Part shown: positions 12,271-63,252 of the stretch, in pieces
Layout of the letters: the number at the start of each line of letters is the position of its first letter
Numbering within the stretch: position 1 is the first letter of the stretch
Assembly: GCA_964385105.1 (NCBI GenBank)
Contig: CAYLMU010000001.1
Coordinates: forward strand, 258,252-322,251
DNA: 64,000 nucleotides
Reading direction: 5' to 3'
DNA from: an uncultured Candidatus Saccharibacteria bacterium
Lineage (GTDB): Bacteria; Patescibacteriota; WWE3; UBA101185; UBA10185
The notes under the pieces: generated by a model
Told to the model about the DNA's origin: nothing
What the model saw: only the letters and a program-made list of their open reading frames with translations
The model's database searches: none
Made by a program: the position numbers and the translations under genes

Positions 12271-12384
12271 ATGAAAGTTAGAAGTTCAGTAAAGAAAATT
12301 TGCAGAGATTGCAAAATAATAAAACGCGAGGGTGTGTTGCGAGTAATATGCAAAAACCCAAAGCACAAGCAAAGGCAAGGATAA
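12271..12384 (+). CDS. rpmJ: 50S ribosomal protein L36 (37 aa; absent from the ORF track because <60 aa)
   Basis: My manual translation gives [37 protein letters not shown]; C-x2-C...C...H zinc ribbon; sits exactly between infA and rpsM. Confidence 0.9.
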
Positions 12385-12774: not shown

Positions 12775-12778
12775 TATT

Positions 12779-17056: not shown

Positions 17057-17096
17057 ATGTGAAAAGTAGTAGGTTTTTTTGAAAGGAGGTGAGAAG

Positions 17097-17675: not shown

Positions 17676-17681
17676 TAAGAA

Positions 17682-17709
17682 ATTCTTGCCTACCCGGGAA
17701 GGCAAGAAT
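17682..17709 (+). promoter_or_regulatory. Perfect 9-bp inverted repeat (ATTCTTGCC - TACCCGGGAA - GGCAAGAAT) between the TasA-like gene and the signal peptidase gene
   Basis: Seen directly in the sequence; no U-tract follows, so it may be an attenuator or processing hairpin rather than a full terminator. Confidence 0.4.
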
Positions 17710-17715
17710 AAATAT

Positions 17716-44477: not shown

Positions 44478-44503
44478 GTAAGTAGAATTAAGTTGGAGGA
44501 TTT

Positions 44504-45256: not shown

Positions 45257-45271
45257 TTTATATATTTTACA

Positions 45272-46465: not shown

Positions 46466-46468
46466 ATC

Positions 46469-47662
46469 ATGCGCATTGCTGTTTTTATTAAAAACACAAC
46501 ACATCATCAAAGTTATGGCGGTTTTGAAACCCAAAACAAAATTTTATGTGAAGGGCTTTCTGCGCGTGGTCATGAAGTTATAGTTTTTTCACCAAAAAAA
46601 GAACTCACAACAGAAAAAATAAGAGAGAACGGGGTAGAATACGTGTTTATTGACTGTATATTCAAAAAATTCAATCTTTTATATGAAAAAAGTGATAAAT
46701 CATGGCAGAATCGCTCTTATAAAACTTTTACGCAATTTCACAACCAAAGTAAATTTGATGTGATAATAAGCCAGAGTAGTTGGGGTTTGGGTGTAATTAA
46801 AAGAAAAGATGTTCATAAAGTTCCTGTTGTTTCAGTTTCACACGGGAGCAAAATAGGAGAATATAAAACCCGCATTCAAAGCGCAGTTTCAATAAAAGAC
46901 TACATTAGAATTGCAATTGATATTCCTCATGTGTTGTATGCTTTTTTTGTTACTCAAAGACGATTTCTTCATGGTTCCGACAATGTTGTAGCAGTGTCCA
47001 GTTCGGTAAAAAAACAAATTGTATCTGAAGCTTTTTTGCCGGAGCAAAAAGTAGTTGTAATTCATAACGGAATACATCCGCCATCAATAAACCTTAATTT
47101 GCAAAAAAACAGTAACAATGTGGAAATTTTGTATGTGGGAAGAATTCTTAGAGAAAAAGGTTTGTTTGCTTTGGTCGATGTTTTGGAAAAACTAATTAGT
47201 TTGGATTTAGAAGTAAATTTGAATTTGGTGGGAGAGGGCAATGACACTGAAGCACTTAAAAAATATGTGAGTGACAAAAGTCTTATTAAATATATTAATT
47301 TAGAGGGTAAATTGTCGTACACTGATGTTATAAACAGAATGGCACAGGCTGATATTTTTGTGTTACCTTCACTTAGGGTTGAAGGGTTTCCTATGACTAT
47401 TGTTGAAGCAATGTTTGCCGGATTGCCTGTTGTGGCATCCGATATAGGAGGAAATGCGGATGCGGTTGTTGATGGGGATACAGGATATTTGGTTGAGCCG
47501 GGCAATGTAGACTCACTTACAGAAAAACTTGAGCAATTAGTAAAAAACAAGGATGAAAGGTTGAGAATGGGTAAAAATGCACAAAATAAAGCTCAAAGTG
47601 AATTTACACAAGATATAATGATAGATAAGTATTTATCTGTTTTAACCGGAGTTATGAAATGA
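46469..47662 (+). CDS. GT4-family glycosyltransferase (GT-B)
   Basis: EGFPMTIVEAMFAGLPVVASDIGGNADAV canonical GT4 E-x7-E region. Confidence 0.8.
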   Translation: MRIAVFIKNTTHHQSYGGFETQNKILCEGLSARGHEVIVFSPKKELTTEKIRENGVEYVFIDCIFKKFNLLYEKSDKSWQNRSYKTFTQFHNQSKFDVIISQSSWGLGVIKRKDVHKVPVVSVSHGSKIGEYKTRIQSAVSIKDYIRIAIDIPHVLYAFFVTQRRFLHGSDNVVAVSSSVKKQIVSEAFLPEQKVVVIHNGIHPPSINLNLQKNSNNVEILYVGRILREKGLFALVDVLEKLISLDLEVNLNLVGEGNDTEALKKYVSDKSLIKYINLEGKLSYTDVINRMAQADIFVLPSLRVEGFPMTIVEAMFAGLPVVASDIGGNADAVVDGDTGYLVEPGNVDSLTEKLEQLVKNKDERLRMGKNAQNKAQSEFTQDIMIDKYLSVLTGVMK

Positions 47663-48855
47663 AAATAGTTAGAGTAATTTATGACTGGCCTCCACCATGG
47701 TATGGTCTGTCACCACATCCTTACGAGCTTACACTGGCTCAGGTAAAAGCAGGGCATGAGGTTGAAGTGTTTTGTGGCCGCTGGCCAAAAGCCGGCCCTG
47801 TGGAAACTTTTGACGGCGTAAATGTGCATGCTTATATGCGTGAGCCCTTTAAAGGATTAATTTTTTTTACTACAGCTTTGTTGGCATTTTTTGGTTTTCG
47901 TAAATGGAAGAAAAGAAACACCTATGATATTTTGCATGTACATGGGCATATGGGGATTTGGTTCTTTTTGCATAGGCATTTGTTAAAAAAATATAAAAAA
48001 AACTCACCGCAGCTTAAAATCCCGCTTGTTGCACATTTTCACAATACTATTGAGGGACGAAAACATGCACTACTGGAAAAAGGTGAAACTCCAAGCTTTA
48101 TATCAAGCAAACTGGAATGGCCATTGGCAAGATATTCAGATATGCTGGCTGTAAAAAATGCTGATGCGCTAATTTTTGCAGGAGAAGAAATAAAGGATGA
48201 AGCAATTAAATATTATGGAGCTGATGCAAATAAGTGTTACGTTGTTGAGTCGGGTGTAAATACTGATGAATTTCATTCTGTAGGGGCTGAAGAAAAAGGT
48301 AAAACGCGCAGTGAACTGGGTTTTGACCATACCGACATAGTAGTTTTAAATCACGGGTATATGGTTGAACGAAAAAACATACATTCATTGGTTGAAGCAT
48401 TTAAATACTTGCCCGAACAATACCGTTTGTTTTTGGTGGGTCCGTTTGATAGCGATGATTATAGATTTAAGATAAATACGTTAATTGAAGAAAATAAACT
48501 ACAAGAAAAAGTCACTATGACGGGGTATGTACCTTATCCCGAAACACCTATTGCTTTTCAGGCTTCTGATTTGTTTGTTTTACCGTCGTCGTTTGAAGGT
48601 GTACCTAAGGTGGTAATGCAAAGCCTTTCATGCGGTGTGCCGGCACTGGTATCAGGTTTTAGGCTAAATGAAGAAATTCAAGGTTTGAAATACCTTGATA
48701 CACAAGATCCAAAAGAAATTGCAGATCAAATAGTTAATACTTTTACCAATTATCCGGCTGTAGATGTTGCAAAAGTGCAAAGTCTTTACTCATGGAAAAC
48801 AAGAGCCAGATTAATAGATGAAATTTATGCATCTCTTAAACAAAATATATCTTAA
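47659..48855 (+). CDS. GT4-like glycosyltransferase (GT-B)
   Basis: FEGVPKVVMQSLSCGVPALVS C-terminal motif; start overlaps the previous stop. Confidence 0.68.
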   Translation: MKIVRVIYDWPPPWYGLSPHPYELTLAQVKAGHEVEVFCGRWPKAGPVETFDGVNVHAYMREPFKGLIFFTTALLAFFGFRKWKKRNTYDILHVHGHMGIWFFLHRHLLKKYKKNSPQLKIPLVAHFHNTIEGRKHALLEKGETPSFISSKLEWPLARYSDMLAVKNADALIFAGEEIKDEAIKYYGADANKCYVVESGVNTDEFHSVGAEEKGKTRSELGFDHTDIVVLNHGYMVERKNIHSLVEAFKYLPEQYRLFLVGPFDSDDYRFKINTLIEENKLQEKVTMTGYVPYPETPIAFQASDLFVLPSSFEGVPKVVMQSLSCGVPALVSGFRLNEEIQGLKYLDTQDPKEIADQIVNTFTNYPAVDVAKVQSLYSWKTRARLIDEIYASLKQNIS

Positions 48856-50401
48856 TTTAAAGCCTATTCACATTTTTGCGTTGTTTGTGTTTTTTCATTT
48901 GCTCTTGCTGAATTTCAATGCTGCTGAATGGGGTGATAGTTATAGGATTCTTCGAGCTACGGAGTTTATTAAAAACGATTTTACTTACCCTGAAGATGAA
49001 AAAAGACCACCATTATATTCGCTGGTTTTGGCATTTAGGCCTCAAAATATTGATGCAGTGCTGTGGGGGCGTCTTACAATGTTTGTTGTTAGTATTTTAG
49101 CCTTTGTGGTTTTTTATAGACTTTTGCAAAAAATTTTTCCGGACGACCTGAAAAAACAGCTACTTGGATTGCTTTTATTCACATTAAATCCCGTTTATCT
49201 ATATTGGTCTATAAGAATTATGTCGGATGTGTTTTTTTCGCTTATTATACTTACGGGTATTTATTATTACGAAAGTTATAAACACAAAATTAGGCCGAAA
49301 AACGCAGTTGTATTAGGTATTTTAGCGGGATTAGCAATTCTCACACGTTTTGAAGGTTTTATATTGTTTGGGGCTTTTGGTCTGGGATTGTTATATACAG
49401 AATCTTTCAATCTCAAAAAATTTACCCGACAAATAGCAAAAAATCTGAAAACTTTATTTTTTTACGTTATTTCAGCGTTTGCGGTACTTTTACCTTATTG
49501 GCTTTATAGAAACCCGCTTGATTCAACGTATTTTGAGGAACCTGCAAGCCGAACTTATGATTTAAATACAATTTTAATATTTCTAGGTTCGTTATTTTTT
49601 GTATTTGGATTTGTTTATGCATTTTATTTTATATTCCAAAATCGCCGGTCGGTTATTAAATTTTTATCAAGTCACATCGCAATATCTGCTTTTATTTTTG
49701 TTGAGCTTATATTAATACTTGCATGGCCTGCAGCAATTCCAAGGTTATTTGTACCTATAATACCTTTTTTAATAATTATTCTGGCTGATTCTATAATCGA
49801 ATTCTTTTTTAACAATACGCAAAATAAAATAAAAATACATGATGTAATACTGCTTGGGTTTTTATTGATAGCTTTTTTGGGAATTCAATATGTTTATAAG
49901 TTGCAATTTCTCATTTTAATCAAGCCGGTTCTGGGAGCTGTGGTAGTATTGTCAGTCTTTCAGGCTTTAGCTATATACAAAAAAAATTATAACCTCTTTT
50001 TGTTTTTGCTTATTCCCATTTTAACACTTTGGTCGTTTGCAACCATTTATATCCACAAAGATATTTTTGCCGTAATAAAAGAAGCAAATGTTTATGTGAT
50101 AAATAATCTTGAGGGAAGAGTGGGATATAATGACATAAGTAGCGTATCCGATTGGTATTTAAATCAGCGCAATAAAAACGATGACGTTGAAGGATTTTAC
50201 TATGACCTCACAAATCGTTCTAATCGAACGTATGAGAAGCTTATTGAAAACAATGTAGATTATATAACTGTCACCAATGAACACAATACAACAACAGAAC
50301 TTGACTTAGACGATTGGGAACACCTTGAAGTGATTAAAGAATTTAAAAAAGAAATTAACGGGAAAGAGTTTTGGACAAGAATTATTAAGTTTAACAAGTA
50401 G
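48818..50401 (+). CDS. GT-C-fold polytopic glycosyltransferase (ArnT/PMT_2-like)
   Basis: >10 TM; N-terminal periplasmic-loop motif GDSYRILRATEFIKN...DEKRPPLY resembling PMT_2/ArnT. Confidence 0.5.
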   Translation: MKFMHLLNKIYLNLKPIHIFALFVFFHLLLLNFNAAEWGDSYRILRATEFIKNDFTYPEDEKRPPLYSLVLAFRPQNIDAVLWGRLTMFVVSILAFVVFYRLLQKIFPDDLKKQLLGLLLFTLNPVYLYWSIRIMSDVFFSLIILTGIYYYESYKHKIRPKNAVVLGILAGLAILTRFEGFILFGAFGLGLLYTESFNLKKFTRQIAKNLKTLFFYVISAFAVLLPYWLYRNPLDSTYFEEPASRTYDLNTILIFLGSLFFVFGFVYAFYFIFQNRRSVIKFLSSHIAISAFIFVELILILAWPAAIPRLFVPIIPFLIIILADSIIEFFFNNTQNKIKIHDVILLGFLLIAFLGIQYVYKLQFLILIKPVLGAVVVLSVFQALAIYKKNYNLFLFLLIPILTLWSFATIYIHKDIFAVIKEANVYVINNLEGRVGYNDISSVSDWYLNQRNKNDDVEGFYYDLTNRSNRTYEKLIENNVDYITVTNEHNTTTELDLDDWEHLEVIKEFKKEINGKEFWTRIIKFNK

Positions 50402-50418
50402 GGTATAATTATTTAGAT

Positions 50419-51111
50419 ATGAAATTGTCCATTGTTATGCCGGTTTATAATGAAAAAGACACTTTGGTCAAAATACTTGATTTAATTCAAGATGTAAACT
50501 TAGGTGAAGTAGAAAAAGAAGTTGTTTTAGTTGATGATGCTTCAACTGACGGAACTACAGAAATATTAAAAAAGTTAAGCAACGAGAATCCGCAATATAA
50601 GGTTATTTTCAAACAAACAAACGAAGGAAAAGGTTTTGCACTTAGAGACGGGTTTAAGGTATCAACTGGTAATTATGTAATAGTTCAGGATGCAGATTTG
50701 GAATATGATCCCAATGACTATGTAAAATTGCTAAATGCGTTAAATACACAAAATGTTGATGTTGTTTATGGCTCACGTTTTTCGGGAAATTATAAGGATA
50801 TGTCGAGTTTGCACTATGTAGGTAATAAATTTCTGACTTTTGCTACAAATATATTGTATGGCGTTAAACTCACAGATATGGAAACTTGTTATAAGTTAAT
50901 TCCGGGGGATTTTATTAGAAATATGGAAATAAAAGCAGCAAGATTTAATTTTGAGCCCGAGATTACGGCAAAAATTTTAAAATCGGGAATGAATATTGGC
51001 GAGGTTTCCATAAACTATCACGGACGTTCACATGCCGAAGGTAAAAAAATTACCTGGAGAGACGGAATTTCGGCATTATGGACACTTATAAAATTTAGAT
51101 TCACAAACTAA
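50419..51111 (+). CDS. GT2 polyprenyl-phosphate sugar synthase (DPM1/GtrB-like, 230 aa)
   Basis: IVMPVYNE, LVDDASTDGT, QDADLEYDP. Confidence 0.8.
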   Translation: MKLSIVMPVYNEKDTLVKILDLIQDVNLGEVEKEVVLVDDASTDGTTEILKKLSNENPQYKVIFKQTNEGKGFALRDGFKVSTGNYVIVQDADLEYDPNDYVKLLNALNTQNVDVVYGSRFSGNYKDMSSLHYVGNKFLTFATNILYGVKLTDMETCYKLIPGDFIRNMEIKAARFNFEPEITAKILKSGMNIGEVSINYHGRSHAEGKKITWRDGISALWTLIKFRFTN

Positions 51112-53252
51112 TGAAAAATATATTCATAAAATTTAGGGAAAATTTTTTTGTTATTGCGCTTTTGTGTTTCATGTTAGGAGTGTTTGCAATCTCTGTAAGA
51201 ATAAACCTTTTTAGGTATAACAACTTTGATTATGGAAAATTTGACCTTGGTAATATGACCCAAATGGTGTGGAATACTTTACACGGAAGAGTTCTTTACA
51301 TGACTGATTATTTTGGAACAAATCTTCCTCGATGGTCAATGAGCCATGTTGACCCTATTTTACTTGTTTTTGTGCCGGTCTTTGCTTTGTTTCAGCATCC
51401 GTTGACTTTAGTTTTTTCACAAATAATACTTGTTTTGCTTTCTGCTCTAATAATTTATAAGATTGCTCTTTTGGAACTTAAGTCTAAATTTGCTGCGATG
51501 GCTTTTGGCTTGTCATTTTTGCTATATCCGGCTGTAGGATTTTTAATTGCATGGACAGGGTTTCATGGAGTAACCGCTGTTATACCGTTTTTCTTGCTGG
51601 CTTTTTACACTTTTGAAAAGATGTTTCACACAAAAAACTTTACTCGTCGTGGTGTTATTTTGTTTTGGATCTTTTTGATTCTAACTATGATGGGTAAAGA
51701 GCAGCTTCCGTTATATATTGTGATGTATGGGTTTTTTATAATTTTATTTAGGTTTGTTGAGCCTCTGCCTTTCCCGTCATGGGAAAATCTAAGTTCATGG
51801 TTTAAAGGCCTGTGGAAACACATAAATGTGAGAATTGGAACTGCCATGGTAATTGTTGGACTATTGTGGTTTTATATAGCTTTTTTTGTTGTAATTCCGG
51901 CATATTCTGATTTACGTGCACAGGGGTTTCAAAAATTTGCTGAAACCATGCGTATAGATCCCGATTCAGTAAGAGATGTAGATAGTGATAATTATTTTAT
52001 TAGTCGGTATGAGGCTTTCGGCGATACTTACACTGAGGTAATCTGGGGAATGATTACACATCCTAAAGAATTAGTGCTAATAAGTTTAGGTGGAGACAAA
52101 CCCGACAATTTAAAAAAGACTCTTGAGCCTATGATGTACACTTCTGTACTATATCCGCCGCTTTTTATAATTGCATTTCCGGACTTTTTAATTAATTATG
52201 CTACTTCTGCGGGGGGAATCGGTACTTCTGAAATTATAAATCATAGAATTTCTATGATTGTGCCTGTAGTTTTTATATCAAGTATTTATTCGATAGGGTT
52301 ATTGGCATATCTGGCATCCTCAATAACAAAACTCGACAAACGCTATTTAGTAATTGGCTTGTCGGGAGCTGTGTTGCTTGGAAATATTTATACTACCTTT
52401 CAATATAATAATCCTATTTATTTGTGGTTAACACAGGCCGTATCAAAAAGAATTCCTGTTTTGGCCAAGTCTGATACACAGATAATAAAAGAAAATATTG
52501 AAATAGGTGACAGGTTTACGCTTTCAAAACTGGAAACAAAAGATCGGGAATGTGCGGAAAAAATAGTTAGGATGATTCCTGATGATGCGTCGGTGTCAGG
52601 ACCTGATTATTTAGGTGCGCATTTATCAATGAGAGAAACTTATGCTATATTCCCAGCTTTATACAACGAAGCTGATTACGTGATTGTTGATGTTTTTTCA
52701 CAAAAAATCCTAAGAATTCTTGATGCTGATTTAACCTTAGTGCGTGACGTGGTATCTGACATTATAAAAGCTGAAGATTACGGCTTTAAACTTGGCTGCG
52801 GAAATCTTTTTGTCTTTGAAAAAACTCCAAATGCATCAAAATCAATGTTATTACCGCTTCAAGAAAGATATCAGTATGAGGAGCAGGTTAATTTGGAAAT
52901 ATTTGAAAGTCTAACAGTGGTAGATTATGAATTTCCTCAAGAAATGAAGAAAAACACTGTTTATGATGCTCAAATTGTGTATGTAAAAAAAGAAGAAAAA
53001 CGACTTGATGACTACGTATTATTTTTAACATTTATTAACAGCGAGTCGGGAGAAATTTATCAGGTGGCAAACTTACCTTCATTTGCATTAAACCAACTTC
53101 GAAATTGGCCTGAAGATATGTACTTTATTGAAAATCTGCAAATTGCGCCGCCTGAATTTTTAGCCACAGGTACTTATAAAGTTTTTATCGGTATGTCAAA
53201 CGAAATTAGAACCAGAAGTATTTATTTAGGCGATGCAGAAATTGTACAATGA
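51111..53252 (+). CDS. Large polytopic membrane protein with a ~300-aa extracytoplasmic C-terminal domain (GT-C-like architecture, possibly DUF2079-like)
   Basis: ~400-aa multi-TM N-terminus (FDLGNMTQMVWNTLHG loop) then a soluble domain; no STT3 WWDYG motif. Confidence 0.42.
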   Translation: MKNIFIKFRENFFVIALLCFMLGVFAISVRINLFRYNNFDYGKFDLGNMTQMVWNTLHGRVLYMTDYFGTNLPRWSMSHVDPILLVFVPVFALFQHPLTLVFSQIILVLLSALIIYKIALLELKSKFAAMAFGLSFLLYPAVGFLIAWTGFHGVTAVIPFFLLAFYTFEKMFHTKNFTRRGVILFWIFLILTMMGKEQLPLYIVMYGFFIILFRFVEPLPFPSWENLSSWFKGLWKHINVRIGTAMVIVGLLWFYIAFFVVIPAYSDLRAQGFQKFAETMRIDPDSVRDVDSDNYFISRYEAFGDTYTEVIWGMITHPKELVLISLGGDKPDNLKKTLEPMMYTSVLYPPLFIIAFPDFLINYATSAGGIGTSEIINHRISMIVPVVFISSIYSIGLLAYLASSITKLDKRYLVIGLSGAVLLGNIYTTFQYNNPIYLWLTQAVSKRIPVLAKSDTQIIKENIEIGDRFTLSKLETKDRECAEKIVRMIPDDASVSGPDYLGAHLSMRETYAIFPALYNEADYVIVDVFSQKILRILDADLTLVRDVVSDIIKAEDYGFKLGCGNLFVFEKTPNASKSMLLPLQERYQYEEQVNLEIFESLTVVDYEFPQEMKKNTVYDAQIVYVKKEEKRLDDYVLFLTFINSESGEIYQVANLPSFALNQLRNWPEDMYFIENLQIAPPEFLATGTYKVFIGMSNEIRTRSIYLGDAEIVQ

Positions 53253-54802
53253 AAAGTTTAACGGCCTGGCAGTTTGTAAGTTTTGTTTCAAGAGGTGTGG
53301 CAAATGTTATTGGGCTTGTTCAGACATTTATTTTTGTAAGAATTCTCACTGTTTCGGAATATGGTTTAGTACAGCTTGCTGCTGCAGTTGGCGGAGCACT
53401 AGGAATTTATCAGCATTTAGGGCTGGCTTCAGGCAGTACGCGTGAGATATCATCAGCAAAAGATGATACTGAGATTTTTAAAATTTTTTTGACGTCAGTT
53501 TTTATTCGTTATCTTGTGGCAATTCCTTTGGCTATTTGGCTATTTGTTTATGCAGACAATATTGCTGTAGATCAGTATTCACAACCATCATTAATAACCC
53601 CGCTAAAAATATATGCTCTTGTTTTACCGATTCAAGGTATGCAAGGAATTCTTAACTCAGTGATTGCAGGTACAAAGCGGTTTAAGCAGTTATTTACTTA
53701 TCAGGCAACTGTACCGTTGGTGAGCATAATTTTGTATGTGGCATTAATTTATATTTATCGGGTTGACGGCTATTTTTATGCATTTTTTATATTTAACTTA
53801 ATTTCAACCATTGTGTTGTCATATATTGCATTTCGCCCGTTAAAAGGCAAACTCATGCTACCCTCAAAAGACGATTTTAAAAGATTGTTAAAAGAATTAT
53901 TTTCAATTAGTCTGGCAATTTATGTTGTAAAAATCGTATATACATGGTGGGAAAAAGCCGGCCCTTTACTGCTTGGGTTTGAGGTAACACCTGAACTTGT
54001 AGGTATTTTTACTTTCGCTCTTTTATTTTCAAAAAAAATAATTCAGGTTTCTGATGCGGTTACCGATATTAATCTTCCGGTGTTTTCTGAAAAATATGTT
54101 CAAAATATTGATGAATTTAAAGAAATGTTTATCAGAAACTTTAATAAAGTATTTGCATTTATTATTTTTGCAGCCACCAGTGCTGTTTTCTGGTCGAGTG
54201 AAATTGTATATTTATTCGGAGGTTCTAAGTATGATGGCGCTGTTCCTCTCATATTACCTCTTGTGTTTACTTTCACTTTTTACGCGTTTACTAATATTAT
54301 TAAATCAAGCATACTAATTCCTGCAAAATTTATTAAAGAAATGATATTCAGCTTTATTATCATGTTATTTGTTACTACCGGATTTTACTCATTATTTACC
54401 GAAGCAAATATTTTGGTTAGGTTAAGTGGAATGCTTGGAATTGAGCATTTAGAAAGTTTAGCCCTGCGATTGCCCAATTTTGCTGAAATCTATTCTTTAC
54501 CTCAACTGGATTACTTATCCGGTATGACATTTGGGTTGTTAGCAGGCTCGTTCTTGGGCTTTGTTTATATGGTAGTTTCATCACAATATAAGCTAAAAAT
54601 GAAATATATCGACCATTCTCATATTTTAGTATTACTTCAAAGTTTTATTATTTCTCTAACAAAAGATATTGGCACTTTCTGGCAGAAAATCCCGTTATAC
54701 ATAGTTTTTGTAGTTTTGTACATGGTTGGGATTTATATAGCTCAATTCATAACAAAGGATGATTTATTACTGCTCAAAAACAAATTGAGGAGATTTACAT
54801 AA
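53249..54802 (+). CDS. Wzx-like MOP-superfamily polysaccharide/oligosaccharide flippase
   Basis: 517 aa, ~14 TM, polysaccharide-biosynthesis-protein pattern. Confidence 0.58.
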   Translation: MKSLTAWQFVSFVSRGVANVIGLVQTFIFVRILTVSEYGLVQLAAAVGGALGIYQHLGLASGSTREISSAKDDTEIFKIFLTSVFIRYLVAIPLAIWLFVYADNIAVDQYSQPSLITPLKIYALVLPIQGMQGILNSVIAGTKRFKQLFTYQATVPLVSIILYVALIYIYRVDGYFYAFFIFNLISTIVLSYIAFRPLKGKLMLPSKDDFKRLLKELFSISLAIYVVKIVYTWWEKAGPLLLGFEVTPELVGIFTFALLFSKKIIQVSDAVTDINLPVFSEKYVQNIDEFKEMFIRNFNKVFAFIIFAATSAVFWSSEIVYLFGGSKYDGAVPLILPLVFTFTFYAFTNIIKSSILIPAKFIKEMIFSFIIMLFVTTGFYSLFTEANILVRLSGMLGIEHLESLALRLPNFAEIYSLPQLDYLSGMTFGLLAGSFLGFVYMVVSSQYKLKMKYIDHSHILVLLQSFIISLTKDIGTFWQKIPLYIVFVVLYMVGIYIAQFITKDDLLLLKNKLRRFT

Positions 54803-55737
54803 TGAATAAAAAAGCGTTGCTAAAAGTTGTTATAAGTTCTGTTTTGCTGTTCATAACACTTAATAATGTTGACTTAGAACAATTGGTTCTAAATTTTAGG
54901 CAGTTCGAACTAATTTATATACCTTTGATTGTAGGGTTTTTATTGTTGAACTATGTTATCAGCTCGGTGAGATGGAAAAAACTTTTAATTTTTGAGAATT
55001 CACAAAAGGCTTCACTGTCGTATTTGATGAATTTATATTTTGTTGGGGCGTTTTTTAACAATTTCATGCCCACAAGCATTGGTGGGGATGTTTATAAAGT
55101 GTACAAATTAGGAAACAAAATAGGTAGCAAAGCAAATGCTTTTTCAGCCACATTTATGGAGCGATTCACAGGTATGGTGGCTTTAGTACTGATTTCATAC
55201 TTTGGTATTGTAAAAACCTGGAGTATTTGGCTATCTTTTTTACCCCAAGAAATTGCCCAAAGTAATTTATTGTTAACTATGTTTAAACTGATGATATTTT
55301 TAGGCTTTTGGGTCGGTGCCGTAGCTGCATTTGTGTTTTTGAAAATTTTGGCCAAAAAATCAAAGAAATTAAAAAAACTTTATGAATCAATAATGGTTTA
55401 TAAAAAAGAAAAAGAAGTTATGTTCTGGGCTTTTTTAACATCTTTTGTTGTACAGCTAATTTCTATTTTCACACAATTTTTTATATTTAAGGGGCTTAAC
55501 GTTGACATGAACATTTGGTATGCATTAGCAGTATTTCCTGTTATTACACTTGCAAGCTTTTTTATACCTTCTCTCAATGGAATCGGTGTTCAAGATGCAA
55601 TGTATAATCAGATTTTCACTGCTGGAGGTATAACTACAAGTACAATAGCTTTAAGCGCTTCAATTATTTATCATTTATTTAGATTATTTGTCAGTTTGAT
55701 TGGCGGATTTATTTATGCATTTAACAAAAATACTTAA
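54802..55737 (+). CDS. UPF0104 / MprF-N-terminal-like flippase-domain membrane protein
   Basis: RWKKLL...NNFMPTSIGGDVYKVYKL pattern of the LPG_synthase_TM family; 8 TM. Confidence 0.52.
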   Translation: MNKKALLKVVISSVLLFITLNNVDLEQLVLNFRQFELIYIPLIVGFLLLNYVISSVRWKKLLIFENSQKASLSYLMNLYFVGAFFNNFMPTSIGGDVYKVYKLGNKIGSKANAFSATFMERFTGMVALVLISYFGIVKTWSIWLSFLPQEIAQSNLLLTMFKLMIFLGFWVGAVAAFVFLKILAKKSKKLKKLYESIMVYKKEKEVMFWAFLTSFVVQLISIFTQFFIFKGLNVDMNIWYALAVFPVITLASFFIPSLNGIGVQDAMYNQIFTAGGITTSTIALSASIIYHLFRLFVSLIGGFIYAFNKNT

Positions 55738-57289
55738 AAATAAATATTTACCGGTAGGTCTTTTTATTTTGCTTTTTTTTACTACCCGATTACCGTCATT
55801 GGGTGTTGATGCAATAAATCCCGATGGAGTTAATTGGCACTACAGGTCACAACAATTTATAGTCGGTTTAAAATCAGGTGATTTTGAAAAAACTCATCAG
55901 CATTACCATCCCGGTGTTACGTTAATGTGGGTAGCCGGTATACCAATAGAATTAATAAAACAATTAAATCCTGAAGATGCAGTTTATACCCATCTCAACT
56001 TTATGAAATTTCACACTGCTGCTAAATTAGCACTTGTTTTGGTGCAGTTTATCGTTTCTATATTGATTATATTTGTTTTATACAAAGTTTTGTTGCTTAA
56101 AAACAGGCAATTTCCCTTGCTTATGTCAGTATTCACTGTTGGTCTGTTTTCTCTGGAGCCATTCTTTCTTGGGAACTCAAGGTTATTACACTTGGATGTT
56201 TTGTTGGCGTTACTATTGTTTTTAGGCTTGCTACTGTTTTACTTGTACATAGGCACTTACAAATATACATATGGTGTTTTTGCAGCAATTATTTTGAGTC
56301 TTGCTTTTTTGACTAAAAGTATTGCAATAGGCGCACTTTCTTTTTCATTAGCAATAGGAGGAATGTTATTTTTTAAAGAATTAGGCTTTAAAGGTACTCT
56401 CAAGTTGTTACTCCCATTTTTGGTAATTTATATTGTTACTTTATTTTTGTTCTTTCCTGCTATGTGGACGGCTCCGGTAGACACAATTTATAACATTTTT
56501 GACGAAGCTGAAAGGGTTGGAATAAGAAAAGGTCATGAACAAATCGTTTTTGGCGAGTATACACGTGATGCAGGTCCTTTATTTTATATTCTTGTGTTAT
56601 TACTTAAGACAACACCTTTTACATTAATCGGATTAGTGGCCTTTTTGGTGTTTAAGTTTAAAAGTGTTTTATTGAATATGAACGCCTCGATTGAAAAAAT
56701 AAAAATTTCGCCCGAATTGTTTCTGGGAATTTTTTACTTTGGTTATCTGCTTGTAATGATGTATCCGTCAAAAAAGCTTGATCGATACATGATTCCTCTG
56801 TATCCTTTTTTTGGGTTTATAGCAGTGTACGGTTACTATGAGCTTTATAATAAACTTAAAAGGGTTCATTTTGTCATATTAACTTTAGTTTTGAGTATGC
56901 TTTTTGTGGTATGTCCGGTATTAAAGCTACATCCTTATCCATTTACATATTCAACTCCATTAGTAGGAAGTGCTGACTCCGCACACAAAATCTTAGCACA
57001 AAAACCTTTTGGTATAGGTATACCGGCGCTAAGGGAATTTATTTTTGAAAAATACGGAGAATATCCTACGCTTGGTTTTATTGATACAAAACCTATGAGC
57101 GCTATTTACATGAATTCTCGTTTATTTGACATACGCGTGGATGGAACAAGCAATTACGATATTATTGTTTTGGCAGTTGATGAAGAAATGCCCCAAGAAA
57201 TCCTTGAATCCGAAAACAAGTTTGTTCATGACAGTTCATACTACATAAACGGATTGGAATACTGGAGAATTTATGTTAAAGAGAAGTAA
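55700..57289 (+). CDS. GT-C-fold membrane glycosyltransferase, paralog A (PMT/ArnT-like)
   Basis: Shares YHPGVTLMW, SLEPF(F/Y)LG..R..HL(D/E) and PSKKLDRY(M/L)(I/L)P blocks with the ORF at 58543-60177. Confidence 0.5.
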   Translation: MADLFMHLTKILKNKYLPVGLFILLFFTTRLPSLGVDAINPDGVNWHYRSQQFIVGLKSGDFEKTHQHYHPGVTLMWVAGIPIELIKQLNPEDAVYTHLNFMKFHTAAKLALVLVQFIVSILIIFVLYKVLLLKNRQFPLLMSVFTVGLFSLEPFFLGNSRLLHLDVLLALLLFLGLLLFYLYIGTYKYTYGVFAAIILSLAFLTKSIAIGALSFSLAIGGMLFFKELGFKGTLKLLLPFLVIYIVTLFLFFPAMWTAPVDTIYNIFDEAERVGIRKGHEQIVFGEYTRDAGPLFYILVLLLKTTPFTLIGLVAFLVFKFKSVLLNMNASIEKIKISPELFLGIFYFGYLLVMMYPSKKLDRYMIPLYPFFGFIAVYGYYELYNKLKRVHFVILTLVLSMLFVVCPVLKLHPYPFTYSTPLVGSADSAHKILAQKPFGIGIPALREFIFEKYGEYPTLGFIDTKPMSAIYMNSRLFDIRVDGTSNYDIIVLAVDEEMPQEILESENKFVHDSSYYINGLEYWRIYVKEK

Positions 57290-58565
57290 AAATATTGTTG
57301 TTGAGAATAAGCTTTTGTTTGGCATATTTGCTTTTACGCTCTTTTTAAGACTGCTTTCTATAGAACATTCATTCCCCAATATTGTGCATCCCGATGAACC
57401 TACAATTGTGAGGTCGGCACTTGGGATTAGATTTTTTCCAAATCCTAAGCATTTTGACTGGCCACATTTGTATATCTATTTAAATTACTTTGTATACATG
57501 CTTTTTGCCTGGGTACGTAATATTTTAGCAATGTTGGGGCTTAAGAGTACTTTTTCAAATATTTTTCCGCTTTTGTGGAACGATGACCTTATTTTTTATT
57601 TAATCAGCAGAATATTTTCATCATTTTTGGGAGCATTAACGGTTTTTCCGGTTTATCTGGCTGCATTAAATTTATTTAAAAATAAGAAAGTTGCCATTTT
57701 TTCGGCTTTAGTTATGGCTGTGTTACCATACCACATCTGGCATTCCCAGTACTCGTTGGCAGATGTTCCAATGACATTTTTTTTGGCTATGGCAATGTAC
57801 TTTTGCACGCATATATTTAAATCAAATAAAACTTTTTATTATATATTGGCAGGTTTATTTGTAGGTTTTGCCGCGTCTACAAAGTATAACGGTGGATTAT
57901 CGGCTTTAATTGTGCTAACAGCACATTTATTGCGCGTTTACAGCACCAAAGAAAGATTATTTAGCATTGAAAATTTAAAAAATTTGTTTTTGTCAGGTAC
58001 TTTTTCACTAATCGGATTTGTTATGGGAACTCCGTATGCTTTACTTGATTTTTCAACTTTTATACGAACAGATGGCCCAAAAGGAGCTTTGTGGCAGTTC
58101 ACAAACGTAGGTAAAGTTTCACTTGATTTACAGGTGATTAAATTTGTAAGTTTATTTTTTACCAAACTTCCGGACGATTTTGGTTTTATGCCTCTTATTG
58201 CATATCTTACGGTTGTACTTTCACTGCCCTTCAAAATAGTAAGAAATTTTATTTTTGTACATGTGGAGCCTTTATTATTGCTGATAATTCCTTCGTTGAT
58301 TTTTTTCTTTTATATTGCAGGATTTGAAAAAAGCAGATCTCATTATTATTTTATTACCTATCCTTTAGTGGCTGTTGTTGCTGGATATTTGGTACATAAA
58401 TTATTTGATTATGTTGGTACCTCATTTAATAAAAAGGTACAAATGTTAATGTTATTGCTCTTTTTCATTTTTCCGCTCATAGTAATAATACAAAATACAA
58501 TTTCCAGATTTGAAAGTTACAATATTGTAACGGAAGAAACTTATGAAACTAAAGAAGATTATTGA
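57273..58565 (+). CDS. GT-C-fold membrane glycosyltransferase (ArnT/PMT_2-like)
   Basis: HPDEPTIVRSALGI first-loop motif resembling the DE-containing loop of ArnT/PMT; >10 TM. Confidence 0.55.
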   Translation: MLKRSKNIVVENKLLFGIFAFTLFLRLLSIEHSFPNIVHPDEPTIVRSALGIRFFPNPKHFDWPHLYIYLNYFVYMLFAWVRNILAMLGLKSTFSNIFPLLWNDDLIFYLISRIFSSFLGALTVFPVYLAALNLFKNKKVAIFSALVMAVLPYHIWHSQYSLADVPMTFFLAMAMYFCTHIFKSNKTFYYILAGLFVGFAASTKYNGGLSALIVLTAHLLRVYSTKERLFSIENLKNLFLSGTFSLIGFVMGTPYALLDFSTFIRTDGPKGALWQFTNVGKVSLDLQVIKFVSLFFTKLPDDFGFMPLIAYLTVVLSLPFKIVRNFIFVHVEPLLLLIIPSLIFFFYIAGFEKSRSHYYFITYPLVAVVAGYLVHKLFDYVGTSFNKKVQMLMLLLFFIFPLIVIIQNTISRFESYNIVTEETYETKEDY

Positions 58566-60177
58566 TTTTAAATGGGAATTATCTTTTTTAATATTTTTTG
58601 TGGCTTCACGATTACCTATGCTTGGCCATGATATATTCAACACTGATGTATGGAAATGGAAAAGCCGAATTTTTGATTTTGGTACCGGAATATTCACATT
58701 AAACTTTGAAAAAACAATTCAAAGATATCATCCAGGTGTAACTTTAATGTGGATTGGTAGTTTTGCTGTTAAAGTTTATAACTTTGGGTATGAGCTAATA
58801 TTTAAAATTCCTCCGCCTGATAACTCAATACATACTATTTTTCAATTACACTTTATGCAAAAGTTTTTTATAGTTTTAGCTATCGGATTTACTTTATTTT
58901 TTGTGTTTTATGTTGTTAAACAACTGTTTTCGCTAAAGTATGCTTTGTTAACACTGCTAATGATGTCGCTTGAGCCTTTTTATGTCGGATTGACACGTGT
59001 AGTGCATCTAGAGGGGTTAATGTCAACATTTATGATTGCGTCGTTTGTTGCTTTTTATATGTATATAAGAAATTCCCATATGAGAAAATACATAATTCTC
59101 TCTGCATTCTTTGGTGCTTTAGCAATACTCACCAAAACGTCAGCACTTTTTTTGTTACCGATGATGGCTTTAATACTAGTGTGTGAGCGAATACCAGATT
59201 TTTCCCGCGGATTAAACTTGAAAAATTCAATAAATTATATATTAGTTAACTTTCTCACTTGGTTAGTATTTGTACTTATATTTTTTATAGCTTTGTGGCC
59301 GGCCATGTGGACAATGCCCCAACAAGCCCTAAGCACACTTTATTCAGGTATATCAGAAACCGGAGTAGAAGAAGGGCATATTCAATTATATTTTTCAAAC
59401 TTAGTTGAAGATCCCGGACTCACCTTTTATCCCGTTGTTTTGTTTTTGCGCTCATCAGTTATGTTGATTATTGGGGTCATTGGATTTTTCTTGATTTATA
59501 AAAAATTAAATGCAAATGAGCGTAAATTTGCGTCATATGCTTTGCTGTTTGCACTTTTTTATGGAATTGAAATGACAATCCCATCAAAAAAGCTGGATCG
59601 ATACCTATTGCCAAGTATTATAAGTTTATGGTTTACAGCAGGATTTTTTTATATACATCTATTAAAAAAGATTGAACCATTTGTTGTTGGTTTAATTATT
59701 TTATTATTGCTTCCGGTTTTCACATTGATTGTTTTGCATTCAGACTATTTGGCCTATTACAACCCGCTTATTGGTGGTACGGCAAAAGGTATTTATATCA
59801 TTGAGCCAAAGTGGATGATTGGCCAACATGAGATTGTGGATTACTTAAATGAGCTAAAAACACAAAACGCATACGCTAGCTTTGAAGACGGTGAAAGTAT
59901 TGATGAATACGTGAATACTGTTTTTATTCAGGATAAGCTTGTGGTAGGATTCCAGGAAAAATATTACACTCAAATATGGCCATTTGTTAATGAAATCGGA
60001 GCCAGAGCAACCATTACAGATTTAACAGGACAGGCAATTAATACAAAGTACTTTATATATCCTGTTTGGGATGATACTTCGCACGAAGAAGATCGCTTTG
60101 AGCTTGTTAAAGTTGGCGAAATTGAATCAAAAGGCATAATACTTTACCATGTGTACGAAAGGATAATAGTTTTATGA
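58543..60177 (+). CDS. GT-C-fold membrane glycosyltransferase, paralog B
   Basis: Paralogous to 55700-57289 (conserved blocks listed there). Confidence 0.5.
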   Translation: MKLKKIIDFKWELSFLIFFVASRLPMLGHDIFNTDVWKWKSRIFDFGTGIFTLNFEKTIQRYHPGVTLMWIGSFAVKVYNFGYELIFKIPPPDNSIHTIFQLHFMQKFFIVLAIGFTLFFVFYVVKQLFSLKYALLTLLMMSLEPFYVGLTRVVHLEGLMSTFMIASFVAFYMYIRNSHMRKYIILSAFFGALAILTKTSALFLLPMMALILVCERIPDFSRGLNLKNSINYILVNFLTWLVFVLIFFIALWPAMWTMPQQALSTLYSGISETGVEEGHIQLYFSNLVEDPGLTFYPVVLFLRSSVMLIIGVIGFFLIYKKLNANERKFASYALLFALFYGIEMTIPSKKLDRYLLPSIISLWFTAGFFYIHLLKKIEPFVVGLIILLLLPVFTLIVLHSDYLAYYNPLIGGTAKGIYIIEPKWMIGQHEIVDYLNELKTQNAYASFEDGESIDEYVNTVFIQDKLVVGFQEKYYTQIWPFVNEIGARATITDLTGQAINTKYFIYPVWDDTSHEEDRFELVKVGEIESKGIILYHVYERIIVL

Positions 60178-61466
60178 ACGGGGCAAAAATCACATCTATT
60201 CTAAAAGGCGATTTCATTTTAAAAGGTACTGCTTTGATGAGCATTGGATTTTTTGTTGCCAGCATATTTAATTATTTATTGCAGGTTGTATTGGGGCGAG
60301 TACTAACTATTCCGGAGTTTGGAGTTTTCAATGCATTATTGTCTTTATCATATTTGTTTATCGTTCCGGCTAATGTATTGTCGTTGTCTCTGGTGAAAGT
60401 AACTTCTGAATTAAAGGCAAAAAATTCGTTTAACGAACTCACTCACTTATATAAGTCTTTAGTAAAATGGGCTATTCTACTTGGATCTATACTTGCTTTA
60501 TTTATTTACTTAAGTAGCCCGTGGATATCGTCGTATTTGAGAATTGAAAACCGAAACATTTTTGCTACATATTCATTATTTCTTGGAGCCACTTTTCTGA
60601 CCATAATTCCTGCAGCATTTTTGCAAGGACTTCTTAGATTTAAAGGTTTTGCGTTTTTTGCAATTTCAAGTTCAGTAATAAGGTTAATATTACCGTTATT
60701 GTTTATATACCTGGGGTATAGAGTGGCAGGAGTTTTTGGAGGGCTTTTTATTTTTGCACTATTTAGTTATGTACTTGCACACCTGATTCTTAAAAAAAAT
60801 CTGATTGTTAAAGAAAAGATTGAGGTGAGAAATTTGTTGAGGCGTATACTAACGTTGAGTATTCCTGTGTTGATAATAAGAGTCAGTTTGGATTTAATGG
60901 GTAATGTTGATTTAATTTTGGTAAAACATTTTTTCACTGCTCATGATGCCGGGCTTTATGCGGGAGTAGTTACAATTTGCAAAGTCTTTTTGTTTGGTGC
61001 GGGAATGTTGGGAATGGTTATGTATCCAATAATTTCTGAGATTCACGCAAAAGGTGAAAGTATAATTCCTGCAGTAAAAAAATTTATTATAATACAACTT
61101 GTTTTAGTAACAGGGGGATTAATAACGTTTGTCTTTTTTCCGGATTTGATTTCGGGCGTAATGTTTGGGCAGAAATATATTGAATCAGCAGCATATGTTC
61201 CTCTTTTCGCGTTGTTTGTAGGTGTCTACATACTTATTAATTTTTTTACAATGTTGTGTATTGCAGTTGGAAAGGTGAATGTATATGCTATTTTATCAAT
61301 AGGGGTTATATTGCAGTTTATTGGAATTCAAATGTATCACACTAACCTGTATAACATTATAAGTGTAAACTTAGTTGTTTCAATATGCGTTTTGGTGGTT
61401 TTACTAGCCTATACTGCTAAAATATTAAATCATGAAAAAAGTATCCATAATAATTCCCGCCTATAA
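60174..61466 (+). CDS. Wzx-like MOP-family flippase (second copy)
   Basis: 430 aa, 12-14 TM, PST-family-like N-terminus. Confidence 0.5.
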   Translation: MNGAKITSILKGDFILKGTALMSIGFFVASIFNYLLQVVLGRVLTIPEFGVFNALLSLSYLFIVPANVLSLSLVKVTSELKAKNSFNELTHLYKSLVKWAILLGSILALFIYLSSPWISSYLRIENRNIFATYSLFLGATFLTIIPAAFLQGLLRFKGFAFFAISSSVIRLILPLLFIYLGYRVAGVFGGLFIFALFSYVLAHLILKKNLIVKEKIEVRNLLRRILTLSIPVLIIRVSLDLMGNVDLILVKHFFTAHDAGLYAGVVTICKVFLFGAGMLGMVMYPIISEIHAKGESIIPAVKKFIIIQLVLVTGGLITFVFFPDLISGVMFGQKYIESAAYVPLFALFVGVYILINFFTMLCIAVGKVNVYAILSIGVILQFIGIQMYHTNLYNIISVNLVVSICVLVVLLAYTAKILNHEKSIHNNSRL

Positions 61467-63252
61467 ACAAGAAAAAACGATAAAGCAGGATATTGACAAT
61501 ATTTGCAATACAATGAAACAAACCCGTTTGGATTTTGAAATTATTGTTGTTGACGATGGATCCACCGACAATACTTTTGATGAAGCGAAAAAAAGCCAGT
61601 GTGAAAATGTAAAAGTTGTGCGATACGAAGAAAATGAAGGAAAAGGTTATGCGGTAAGATATGGAATGGCACGTTCAAAAGGTGATTATATCGCATTTAT
61701 TGATGCAGGTATGGATATTGACTCAAATGGAATATCCATGCTTCTTGAACATATGGAGTGGTATGATGCTGATGTAATTGTGGGGAGTAAAAGACATCCT
61801 GCATCTCAGGTAAACTACCCTTTTACCCGAAGAATTTATAGCTGGGGCTATTACACATTGGTTAGATTATTGTTTGGGTTGAAAATTAGAGACACTCAAA
61901 CAGGACTAAAGGTGTTTAAAAGAGAAGTTCTGGAGCAAGTTTTGCCACGGTTGGTAATAAAAAGATTCGCTTTTGATATTGAAATTTTGGCGGTAGCACG
62001 TTATGTGGGATTTAAAAAGATATATGAGGCACCTGTACGCATCAGCTGGGACTTTAATAACACCAACTTTAAAAAATTTTTGATTTTTGAACCATTTATA
62101 AGAGGAATGATTGTAGATACTTTTGGTGTGTTTTACAGGATGCGTATTTTAAAGTATTACCATTCCGATAATAGCGGAAATTGGTATTTAAGCAAAAAAA
62201 TGACTCCGGGTGTTGTTGACGAGGCGTCACCTGTTACATACAAGTTTAGTGTAATTATCCCTGTCAGATCCTTTAATGACTTCTTAACAGAAAATATAAA
62301 AGCGTTGAAATCACAAACTTACAAAAATTTTGAAGTAATTATTATTTTAGACAATGAAGAGTCTTTTGACTTTAAAGGTGATAAAAGATTTAAGGTTATA
62401 GCTGCAGGTGAAATTGGACCTGGTGATAAAAGAAATATTGGAGCGAAAGCATCAACCGGGGATATCTTAGTTTTTTTGGACGATGACGCTTATCCTACTA
62501 TAACTTGGCTTGAATATGCAGATGATGTATTTAATGAAAATGATATTTATGCTTTGGGGGCGCCTGGTGTCACTCCTCCAAATGCCGGAGTTCGGGAGAG
62601 GTGTTCAGGTAGAGTCCTTGAGTCTATGCTTGCAAGTTATAAAGAAGTTTATAGACATATACCATCCTCAAGCCGATTAATAAGCGATTATCCTACGGTA
62701 AATCTTTTCGTAAAAAAAGATGCATTTTTTAAAGTAGGTGGATTTAATGAAAATTTCTGGCCGGGAGAAGACACAAAATTGTGTTTGGACTTAGTTAAAG
62801 AATTTGGAAAACCCTTTTTATACGACCCAAAGCCTGTAGTTTATCATCATCGAAGAAAGCTCTTTTTACCGCACTTAAAACAAATTTCCCGCTACGGGAA
62901 GCACCGGGGTTACTTTGCAAAAAAATTTCCCGAGACCTCCCGTAAGCTCTCATATTTTATTCCCTCCTTATTTGTCTTGGGATTATTTGCAGGACCTATA
63001 ATTGTGTTGTTTTTTAGAGATTTATTATGGATATATTTAATCGCCGTTTATATTTATATTTTCTTTTTGGTTTATGAAACGATAAAAACTATACTATACG
63101 AATTATCTTTTGTAAGTGGTTTATGTGTGGGAGTGGGAATTTTTTTGACTCACGTTGTTTATGGTATAAATTTCATGATTGGACTTTTAAAAAAGCCTGA
63201 CTTAAAATTAAAAAGATTTGACTCCGCTTCCGGAAATTATATAGAAGGATAA
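61432..63252 (+). CDS. Tandem GT2-GT2 two-domain glycosyltransferase with C-terminal TM helices
   Basis: Two GT-A modules (SIIIPAYKQE...VVDDGSTDNT and FSVIIPVRSF...LDDDAY) plus a C-terminal hydrophobic region. Confidence 0.8.
   Translation: MKKVSIIIPAYKQEKTIKQDIDNICNTMKQTRLDFEIIVVDDGSTDNTFDEAKKSQCENVKVVRYEENEGKGYAVRYGMARSKGDYIAFIDAGMDIDSNGISMLLEHMEWYDADVIVGSKRHPASQVNYPFTRRIYSWGYYTLVRLLFGLKIRDTQTGLKVFKREVLEQVLPRLVIKRFAFDIEILAVARYVGFKKIYEAPVRISWDFNNTNFKKFLIFEPFIRGMIVDTFGVFYRMRILKYYHSDNSGNWYLSKKMTPGVVDEASPVTYKFSVIIPVRSFNDFLTENIKALKSQTYKNFEVIIILDNEESFDFKGDKRFKVIAAGEIGPGDKRNIGAKASTGDILVFLDDDAYPTITWLEYADDVFNENDIYALGAPGVTPPNAGVRERCSGRVLESMLASYKEVYRHIPSSSRLISDYPTVNLFVKKDAFFKVGGFNENFWPGEDTKLCLDLVKEFGKPFLYDPKPVVYHHRRKLFLPHLKQISRYGKHRGYFAKKFPETSRKLSYFIPSLFVLGLFAGPIIVLFFRDLLWIYLIAVYIYIFFLVYETIKTILYELSFVSGLCVGVGIFLTHVVYGINFMIGLLKKPDLKLKRFDSASGNYIEG

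Follow-up and report, generated by a model that had tools for sequence, protein, structure and literature searches.

What does a bacterium gain from two related membrane glycosyltransferases with a third one encoded between them? The question is raised by a 64,000-nucleotide (nt) stretch of DNA, hereafter the window, from contig CAYLMU010000001.1 of an uncultured bacterium of the WWE3 lineage of Patescibacteria, in which three overlapping genes, labelled A, M and B, encode membrane proteins of the GT-C glycosyltransferase class, A and B being paralogs of each other. WWE3 and other Patescibacteria have tiny genomes and no cultured representatives, and their cell envelope is essentially unknown. 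Judged from their sequences, A and B are probably non-redundant polyprenyl-phosphate-sugar transferases that differ in acceptor site, linkage or sugar, a reading to which a probability of about 0.58 is assigned. The three genes are arranged as follows:

55715–57289, + strand: A (paralog A), a predicted GT-C glycosyltransferase of 524 amino acids (aa); the longest open reading frame (ORF) begins at TTG 55700
57273–58565, + strand: M, a predicted PMT/ArnT-like GT-C protein of 430 aa, matched by Pfam PMT and PMT_2
58543–60177, + strand: B (paralog B), a predicted GT-C glycosyltransferase of 544 aa with the same core as A

A preliminary description of the locus had placed the three ORFs on this strand, the first spanning 55700–57289, with overlaps of 17–23 nt between them. 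The ORFs and their overlaps (57273–57289, 17 nt, between A and M; 58543–58565, 23 nt, between M and B) were recovered, as was the stop of A, but its real start is very probably ATG 55715, since (i) a 524-aa database copy (P0001), 100% identical to A, begins there, (ii) the alignment with A orthologs begins at the same codon, and (iii) a Shine-Dalgarno-like sequence, GGCGGA, lies 7 nt 5′ of it. The TTG 55700 start was rejected: an exact-sequence lookup of the corresponding protein returned nothing, while the ATG-initiated protein is on record. With the ATG start, A therefore overlaps the upstream LPG_synthase_TM gene by 23 nt. Shine-Dalgarno-like sequences also precede M (GGAG) and B (GGAAGA), each 5 nt upstream of the start and inside the preceding gene. 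A, M and B are tightly packed and probably coupled in translation.

Pairwise alignment bore out the earlier proposal that A and B are paralogs: BLASTP with composition-based statistics aligned them over 492 aa with 29% identity and 50% positives (162 bits, E = 6e-48). Neither protein showed significant BLASTP similarity to M, nor to GTC0, another GT-C protein encoded upstream, despite the same hydrophobic, AT-rich composition. Since these equally composed proteins give no match, composition cannot explain the similarity between A and B. M and GTC0 were accordingly rejected as closer relatives of A or B, being related to them at the Pfam or fold level only. One of the three shared blocks described earlier, EKT.Q.YHPGVTLMW, is exact in both proteins; the other two are real, with patterns that needed correction (SLEPF..G..R..HL instead of SLEPF.LG..R..HL, with FLG in A and YVG in B; PSKKLDRY.[IL]P instead of PSKKLDRY.IP). 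The ArnT-like character ascribed to the middle gene is supported by the matches of M to Pfam PMT (58.3 bits, 1.1e-15) and PMT_2 (41.0 bits, 3e-10).

Relative to the gathering threshold of Pfam PMT_2 (PF13231; 26.1 bits), A scores below (23.4 bits) and B above (28.7 bits). A PF13231 match is precomputed for many A orthologs, and some orthologs of A and B are annotated by NCBI as “glycosyltransferase family 39 protein”. No NCBIfam model matches A or B; M has weak matches to those for Agl23 and ArnT. AlphaFold2 models built from ortholog alignments of 65 (A) and 63 (B) sequences reached a predicted local distance difference test score (pLDDT) of 92.5 and a predicted template modelling score (pTM) of 0.93 for A, and 94.7 and 0.94, respectively, for B. 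In Foldseek searches of the PDB with both models, every match with E≤0.001 was a GT-C enzyme (probability 1.0), with TM-scores of ~0.4–0.54 and identities of 9–15%. The matches of A were ArnT (5f15, best, E = 5.7e-7), AglB/STT3, ALG12, EmbA/B, Pmt4 and ALG9, and those of B were yeast STT3 (3.5e-6), ArnT, ALG9, PglB, Pmt4, DPY19 and AftA. A joint A+B sequence profile matched a single solved protein, ArnT 5ezm (E = 1.1e-5). By their modelled structures, A and B are members of the GT-C superfamily, which is a fold class. Their subfamily is large: a profile search of 1.84 billion cluster representatives matched at least 1,644 of them at E≤1e-30, and 4,033 when the limit was E≤1e-10. Some of these carry long extra C-terminal regions.

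From the helices of the models, the short loops rich in lysine and arginine (positive-inside rule) and GT-C homology, we infer for both proteins 11 transmembrane (TM) helices, an inside N-terminus and an outside C-terminal alpha/beta domain, which comprises 119 aa in A and about 145 aa in B. M has a PDEP (DE) motif in loop 1 and lacks a large C-terminal domain. A, B and M do not appear to be GT39 protein O-mannosyltransferases, as judged by the luminal or extracytoplasmic MIR domain that such enzymes have between TM7 and TM8 (no Pfam match in any of the three) together with the loop-1 DE motif. Nor do they appear to be GT83 ArnT enzymes, as judged by the lipid A acceptor and by the NCBIfam ArnT equivalog PRK13279 (cutoff 567 bits), which leaves A and B unmatched and gives M only 21.3 bits.

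Alignment of ArnT with the A+B profile, with a chain offset of 3 corrected in the ArnT numbering, placed ArnT D158 at A D161/B E157, K203 at A K201/B K198, H267 at A H274/B H279, and Y345 at A Y358/B Y354. In ArnT, D158 (in a salt bridge with K203) contacts the sugar or acceptor and Y345 the lipid phosphate, and an acidic pair in loop 1 is the universal GT-C catalytic site (PMC7801869). Directly after the first TM helix, A has the aspartates D32-x4-D37 and B has D30-x4-D35; in each family the second shows no variation, and conservation of the first is 90% or higher. Loop 1 probably faces outward. In total, 37 positions are identical in both families at ≥90% conservation, 27 of them in loops assigned to the outer face. 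They include N35, D37, W41, R44, E148, P149, R156, H159, H274, Q276 and K353-K354-D356-R357 (A numbering), and the arginine adjoining the equivalent of ArnT Y345 (phosphate contact) is conserved as well. Since the loop-1 aspartates and the equivalents of ArnT D158, K203, H267 and Y345 are kept, both paralogs look catalytically competent. Their donor is presumed to be a polyprenyl-phosphate-linked sugar.

To examine the conservation of the locus, one genome from each GTDB species was scanned with a degenerate pattern; 175 relatives were found, and the best 80 of them gave 74 loci (cited below by L numbers), whose ORFs were labelled by best match to the proteins of the window's cluster. The closest named homologs of A and B all come from candidate division WWE3 or other Patescibacteria, and the WWE3 orthologs are 45–55% identical to the window copies. 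Both genes are present in 61 loci. The mean identity within families is 46% for A and 48% for B; since the two evolve at similar rates, neither copy is decaying. Identity between A and B averages 26% (range 20–35% in all 4,473 cross pairs), and pairs from the same genome (22–32%) are no closer than others. There is no sign in these sequences of a recent duplication, gene conversion or later homogenisation. In neighbour-joining (NJ) trees on Kimura distances, A and B are reciprocally monophyletic with 100% bootstrap support each. The duplication is therefore older than the radiation of the WWE3 genomes sampled here, in agreement with the ancient duplication with divergence that had been suggested earlier.

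The spacing of the genes is also well conserved. In 30 of 52 loci LPG_synthase_TM and A overlap by exactly 23 nt, and the related loci typically have overlaps of 17–20 nt between A and M and of 4 nt between M and B. In two loci, A and B are directly adjacent without M (L012, 10016–13133, with a 23-nt overlap; L066, 9923–13080). Since the A proteins of these loci are not close relatives, M was probably lost twice. In L044 (CAVXUZ010000005.1), M is matched by three consecutive ORFs (68%, 49% and 38% identity), which represent either a pseudogene or assembly frameshifts, and Flip2, the flippase gene downstream of B, was not detected. A lone third A-like copy, 37–38% identical to A, was found in L057 (4451–5998) and L063 (9956–11563). 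These two copies are sisters within the A clade, and the genes around them are unrelated to the cluster and include neither a B-like nor an M-like partner; the genomes concerned also carry the full cluster (L018 and L061).

A comparable arrangement exists in a sister lineage, represented by the divergent protein L073, in which the gene order is LPG_synthase_TM, S1, S2, M-like. S1 and S2 belong to the same subfamily, lie side by side (L077, L079) and are 29–34% identical to each other and 23–31% identical to A and B. In one contig of this lineage (L078), the M-like gene comes immediately after a single subfamily member (S1). As a set, A, B, S1, S2 and the small group Z split from Chloroflexi-type homologs with 100% bootstrap support (NJ), and the two pairs may derive either from one duplication before the lineages split or from two parallel duplications. 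In both lineages there is a recurring module of two subfamily paralogs plus an M-type GT-C gene downstream of an LPG_synthase_TM-like gene, M being a constant third partner whose position relative to the pair differs between lineages. The preliminary description had spoken of an ancient tandem duplication; the age stands on the 100% clades, and the tandem origin is plausible, supported by the adjacency of the paralogs in L012 and L066 and in L077 and L079. A segmental duplication that included the flanking flippase genes was rejected, as Flip1 and Flip2 are only 20% identical (E = 7e-8) and the gene order contains no repeat unit.

The clusters of the sister lineage differ in content. They encode a fusion of ~990 aa between Wzy_C (O-antigen ligase/polymerase-like) and a PMT-type GT-C protein (L077, 18377–21340; L079, 8164–11160) and a MurJ-like flippase, and L079 also encodes a Bac_transf initiating phosphoglycosyltransferase (12275–12908). 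None of these was found in the window's cluster.

To locate the divergence between A and B, 69 A and 62 B sequences were compared region by region, with the topology given above:

Extracytoplasmic loops EL1–EL5: A versus B 38% identity (EL5 69%, EL2 45%); within A 61%, within B 61%
TM helices: A versus B 23%; within A 38%, within B 42%
Cytoplasmic loops: A versus B 14.5%; within A 17%, within B 20%
C-terminal outer domain: A versus B 19.6%; within A 54%, within B 54%

The two proteins had been described as differing in their extracytoplasmic segments. This is correct for the C-terminal outer domain, but not for the catalytic loops, which are the most similar region (A–B identity ranges of 69–88% in EL5 and 45–57% in EL2). 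At 46–48% within-family aa identity, synonymous sites are saturated. At nine positions each family has its own fixed residue (A/B): P36/T34, H42/K40 and E79/K77 in EL1, N154/L150 in EL2, D161/E157 (aligned to ArnT D158) and four in the C-terminal domain. A hidden Markov model (HMM) of the C-terminal domain of either family gave no significant match to the other paralog (E = 0.34 and 2), although these HMMs weakly detect sister-lineage proteins and some outgroup proteins. By profile-profile comparison (hhalign), the two domains share a common origin (87% probability, E = 4e-6), that of B carrying an insertion of ~35 aa (EKYYTQIWPF...YPVWDD).

A, M and B lie within an uninterrupted + strand block of glycan genes of ~20 kb (43.3–63.3 kb; 43341–63252), equal to about 2% of a ~0.9-Mb genome such as that of WWE3 RAAC2 (CP006914, 878,109 bp). 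The other genes of the block are:

43341–48855, + strand: a GT2-GtrA fusion (GtrA domain at 43341–44477), a GT2 enzyme and three GT4 enzymes, assigned by Pfam; the GT4 trio is syntenic in related loci
48818–50401, + strand: GTC0, a fourth PMT_2-type GT-C protein of 527 aa (Pfam PMT_2, 29.3 bits), syntenic in related loci
50419–51111, + strand: GT2c, a small GT2 enzyme (Pfam Glycos_transf_2)
51111–53252, + strand: a DUF2079 polytopic membrane protein of 713 aa (Pfam DUF2079, 1.1e-30)
53249–54802, + strand: Flip1, a Wzx/MOP-type flippase (Pfam Polysacc_synt_3 and Polysacc_synt)
54802–55737, + strand: an LPG_synthase_TM “flippase-like” protein (Pfam, 6.3e-40; NCBIfam TIGR00374), whose gene is the one overlapping A
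60174–61466, + strand: Flip2, a second Wzx/MOP-type flippase (Pfam); the gene overlaps B by 4 nt
61432–63252, + strand: GT2d, 606 aa, with two GT2 domains (Pfam, two stretches), at the end of the conserved cluster

The cluster contains five GT-C-type membrane proteins. Its gene order, GT4a-GT4b-GT4c-GTC0-GT2c-DUF2079-Flip1-(LPG_synthase_TM)-A-M-B-Flip2-GT2d, recurs in nearly every sufficiently long WWE3 locus. GT2c is the most conserved gene (58–74% identity across loci), and its best NCBIfam matches are AglJ, dolichol-phosphate hexose transferase, PgfS (2e-18), ArnC and PpgS; it is a candidate for the polyprenyl-phosphate-sugar synthase that would supply the GT-C enzymes with their donor. Scanning of the cluster revealed no excess of promoter-like sites (66 observed, 81.6 expected) and a weak excess of terminator-like sites (19 observed, 11.5±3.5 expected), results that are compatible with one operon.

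Two further features of the block were observed. GT2d is a single ORF in the window and two adjacent ORFs (~281 and ~335 aa) in most related loci (e.g. L066, 14307–15149 and 15152–16156), reflecting either a fusion in the former or a split in the latter. The two halves of an MprF-like protein are encoded separately, 15 kb apart, by an ORF with LPG_synthase_C only (38624–39532, − strand) and by the gene with LPG_synthase_TM only (54802–55737, + strand); the latter protein may have been co-opted as a flippase for lipid-linked sugars.

The best-supported scheme is as follows. Cytoplasmic GT2 enzymes, e.g. GT2c, would load a sugar onto polyprenyl phosphate, the flippase-type proteins would translocate the lipid-linked sugar, and A, M and B, together with GTC0 and the DUF2079 protein, would each attach a sugar to an acceptor on the outer side, which may be a growing cell-surface glycan or glycoprotein. 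A and B would share their donor-binding and catalytic machinery, located in EL1, EL2, EL4 and EL5. According to Kantor et al., glycosyltransferases are abundant in WWE3, and its one complete genome, that of RAAC2, has no genes for lipid A or lipopolysaccharide synthesis and an incomplete peptidoglycan pathway; they suggest a polysaccharide, a glycoprotein or a glycosylated S-layer (PMC3812714).

That A and B perform non-redundant steps is suggested by the combination of shared donor-side residues with a family-specific C-terminal domain and substitutions adjacent to the active site (D161/E157, N154/L150, E79/K77 and H42/K40). Several points weigh against this reading. An obligate complex would account just as well for the strict co-occurrence of the two proteins; the membrane topology was deduced and not computed by a predictor; the NJ trees are rough, with less than 55% bootstrap support for the order in which A, B, S1, S2 and Z diverged; all NCBIfam scores of GT2c fall far below the equivalog cutoffs; and the window's cluster contains no initiating phosphoglycosyltransferase and no Wzy or ligase gene.

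The main rival explanation, a real if minority possibility, is an obligate hetero-oligomeric GT-C complex in which A and B, and perhaps M, would be subunits with asymmetric roles. It draws on the presence of both proteins in every locus that is long enough (61 same-locus pairs), on genes that are packed, overlapping and probably coupled in translation, and on the sister lineage, which also keeps two paralogs and an M-type gene side by side. Moreover, the fold matches include solved heterodimers of paralogs, Pmt1-Pmt2 (6p25) and EmbA-EmbB (7bvc), and Pmt1-Pmt2 is known to be heteromeric (PMC5016187). The lone A-like copies of L057 and L063, lacking a B-like partner, and the single subfamily member followed by M in L078 argue mildly against such a complex, as does the full set of catalytic residues kept in both paralogs. 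Independent enzymes and a hetero-oligomer are not mutually exclusive.

It is improbable that A and B are redundant isoenzymes, kept for dosage or differential expression of the same reaction. The high similarity of the catalytic loops and the location of both genes in one operon would fit such a role, but two copies of this kind would not normally persist across a whole radiation of reduced ~0.9-Mb genomes. The family-specific residues and the C-terminal domain, with 54% identity within and 20% between families, speak for distinct functions, and differential regulation would be hard to achieve within a shared operon in which internal promoter-like sites are not in excess.

Even less credit can be given to the idea that one paralog is a catalytically dead pseudoenzyme acting as a scaffold or acceptor-binding subunit, a pattern known among other duplicated enzymes. 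B does have glutamate in place of aspartate at the position of ArnT D158, but this change is conservative, conservation in both families is 90% or more at all other candidate catalytic or phosphate-binding residues, and A and B have equal evolutionary rates. Finally, the notion that A and B resemble each other merely through a hydrophobic or low-complexity composition, conceivable for two polytopic membrane proteins from a genome of 33% GC (guanine plus cytosine) and named in the preliminary description as what would undo the paralogy, is practically negligible, given the E value obtained with composition-based statistics, the location of the best-conserved blocks in polar loop motifs and not in TM helices, and the lack of any significant match to M or GTC0.

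The A/B pair constitutes a clean natural experiment, in which the same donor-side machinery is combined with a C-terminal domain and a few active-site residues that have been fixed differently; the contrast points to the domain and residues behind acceptor or linkage specificity in a poorly characterised subfamily. The conserved cluster with its five GT-C proteins marks a surface polymer or glycoprotein modification that is evidently indispensable to WWE3. More speculatively, A, M and B might form a hetero-oligomeric GT-C “assembly line” with GTC0 and the DUF2079 protein, building the principal envelope glycopolymer of WWE3. We consider this rather unlikely; if true, the clade-wide operon would be a patescibacterial analogue of the mycobacterial Emb/Aft arabinogalactan machinery and would define the surface by which these ultra-small, probably host-dependent bacteria meet their surroundings.

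The GC content of the window is 32–37%. Of its 64 ORFs with 120 aa or more, ~60 lie on the + strand, and GC skew stays above zero in nearly all 2-kb bins, which suggests that the window lies on one replichore with a strong gene-strand bias. Small ORFs at 1–16 kb look like a ribosomal-protein operon, and the region at 16–40 kb contains housekeeping genes (ClpB, a release factor, SecDF, RecJ, two aminoacyl-tRNA synthetases, RecA, RecX, RNase Y and YmdB). A gene for a Peptidase_S11 D-Ala-D-Ala carboxypeptidase is located at 28776–29801 (Pfam, 8e-50), despite the incomplete peptidoglycan pathway reported for the complete WWE3 genome (PMC3812714). Five ORFs of 162–389 aa among the housekeeping genes had no Pfam match at the thresholds used, in the following regions:

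17079–18174: Pfam-unmatched
23025–23606: Pfam-unmatched
29798–30967, − strand: Pfam-unmatched
39587–40411: Pfam-unmatched

Scans of the window for tRNAs and Rfam families found nothing.

Literature searches pairing Patescibacteria with GT-C, WWE3 with glycosyltransferase, and the candidate phyla radiation (CPR) with O-mannosyltransferase returned no description of the cluster. It can be compared with several known systems. ArnT of Cupriavidus metallidurans (GT83; 5EZM/5F15) is the best structural match of A and a near-best match of B; it has the GT-C fold, catalytic residues on the outer face and a C-terminal extracytoplasmic domain, and the donor, presumed for A and B, is a polyprenyl-phosphate monosaccharide. 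It shares only 13–15% identity with A and B (TM-score ~0.45–0.5), and it has 13 TM helices, compared with the 11 assigned to A and B. Loop 1 of A and B contains D-x4-D and not a DE pair, and ArnT R270 is not conserved in them. Moreover, the acceptor of ArnT, lipid A, is reported to be absent from WWE3 (PMC3812714).

The PMT enzymes (GT39; Pmt1-Pmt2 and Pmt4; 6P25, 9I5K) resemble A and B in their GT-C fold, in the Pfam PMT/PMT_2 matches and in the pairing of paralogs. They differ in their MIR domain, which A, B and M lack. Of these three, M alone has the DE motif, and Foldseek aligned Pmt chains only in part (~265–280 columns).

In Streptococcus mutans, the protein O-glycosylation system Pgf, a precedent for the division of labour proposed here, comprises one GT-A undecaprenyl-phosphate-sugar synthase (PgfS) and two non-redundant GT-C paralogs (PgfM1 and PgfM2) with different mutant phenotypes (bioRxiv 10.1101/2024.05.05.592596). 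As in the window, paired GT-C paralogs and a GT2c-like enzyme are encoded in one operon (PgfS, PgfM1, PgfE, PgfM2). However, PgfM1 and PgfM2 are of the YfhO type and A and B of the PMT_2 type, and the pgf operon has no third GT-C gene between the paralogs, no Wzx flippases and no GT4 genes. The three-component Gtr and CsbB-GtcA-YfhO glucosylation systems likewise combine a GT2 polyprenyl-phosphate-sugar synthase, a small flippase (GtrA domain) and an outer-face GT-C enzyme. In these systems a single GT-C enzyme decorates a pre-made polymer, whereas the window's cluster encodes five GT-C-type proteins as well as GT4 and GT2 enzymes and two Wzx-type flippases.

The mycobacterial enzymes EmbC, EmbA and EmbB (GT53), considered here along with the Aft arabinosyltransferases, are encoded by GT-C paralogs arranged in tandem within an operon. 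These enzymes use a polyprenyl-phosphate-sugar donor at the outer face, have differing acceptors and carry C-terminal outer domains that aid acceptor binding; several of them cooperate on one wall polymer, and both groups are among the fold matches of A and B. The Emb proteins are twice as long (~1,050–1,090 aa), contain carbohydrate-binding modules and have no detectable sequence similarity to A and B; they also come from unrelated organisms and build unrelated polymers. Rather than a new kind of system, A and B represent an uncharacterised pair of members of the well-known GT-C class, set in a cluster of familiar logic.

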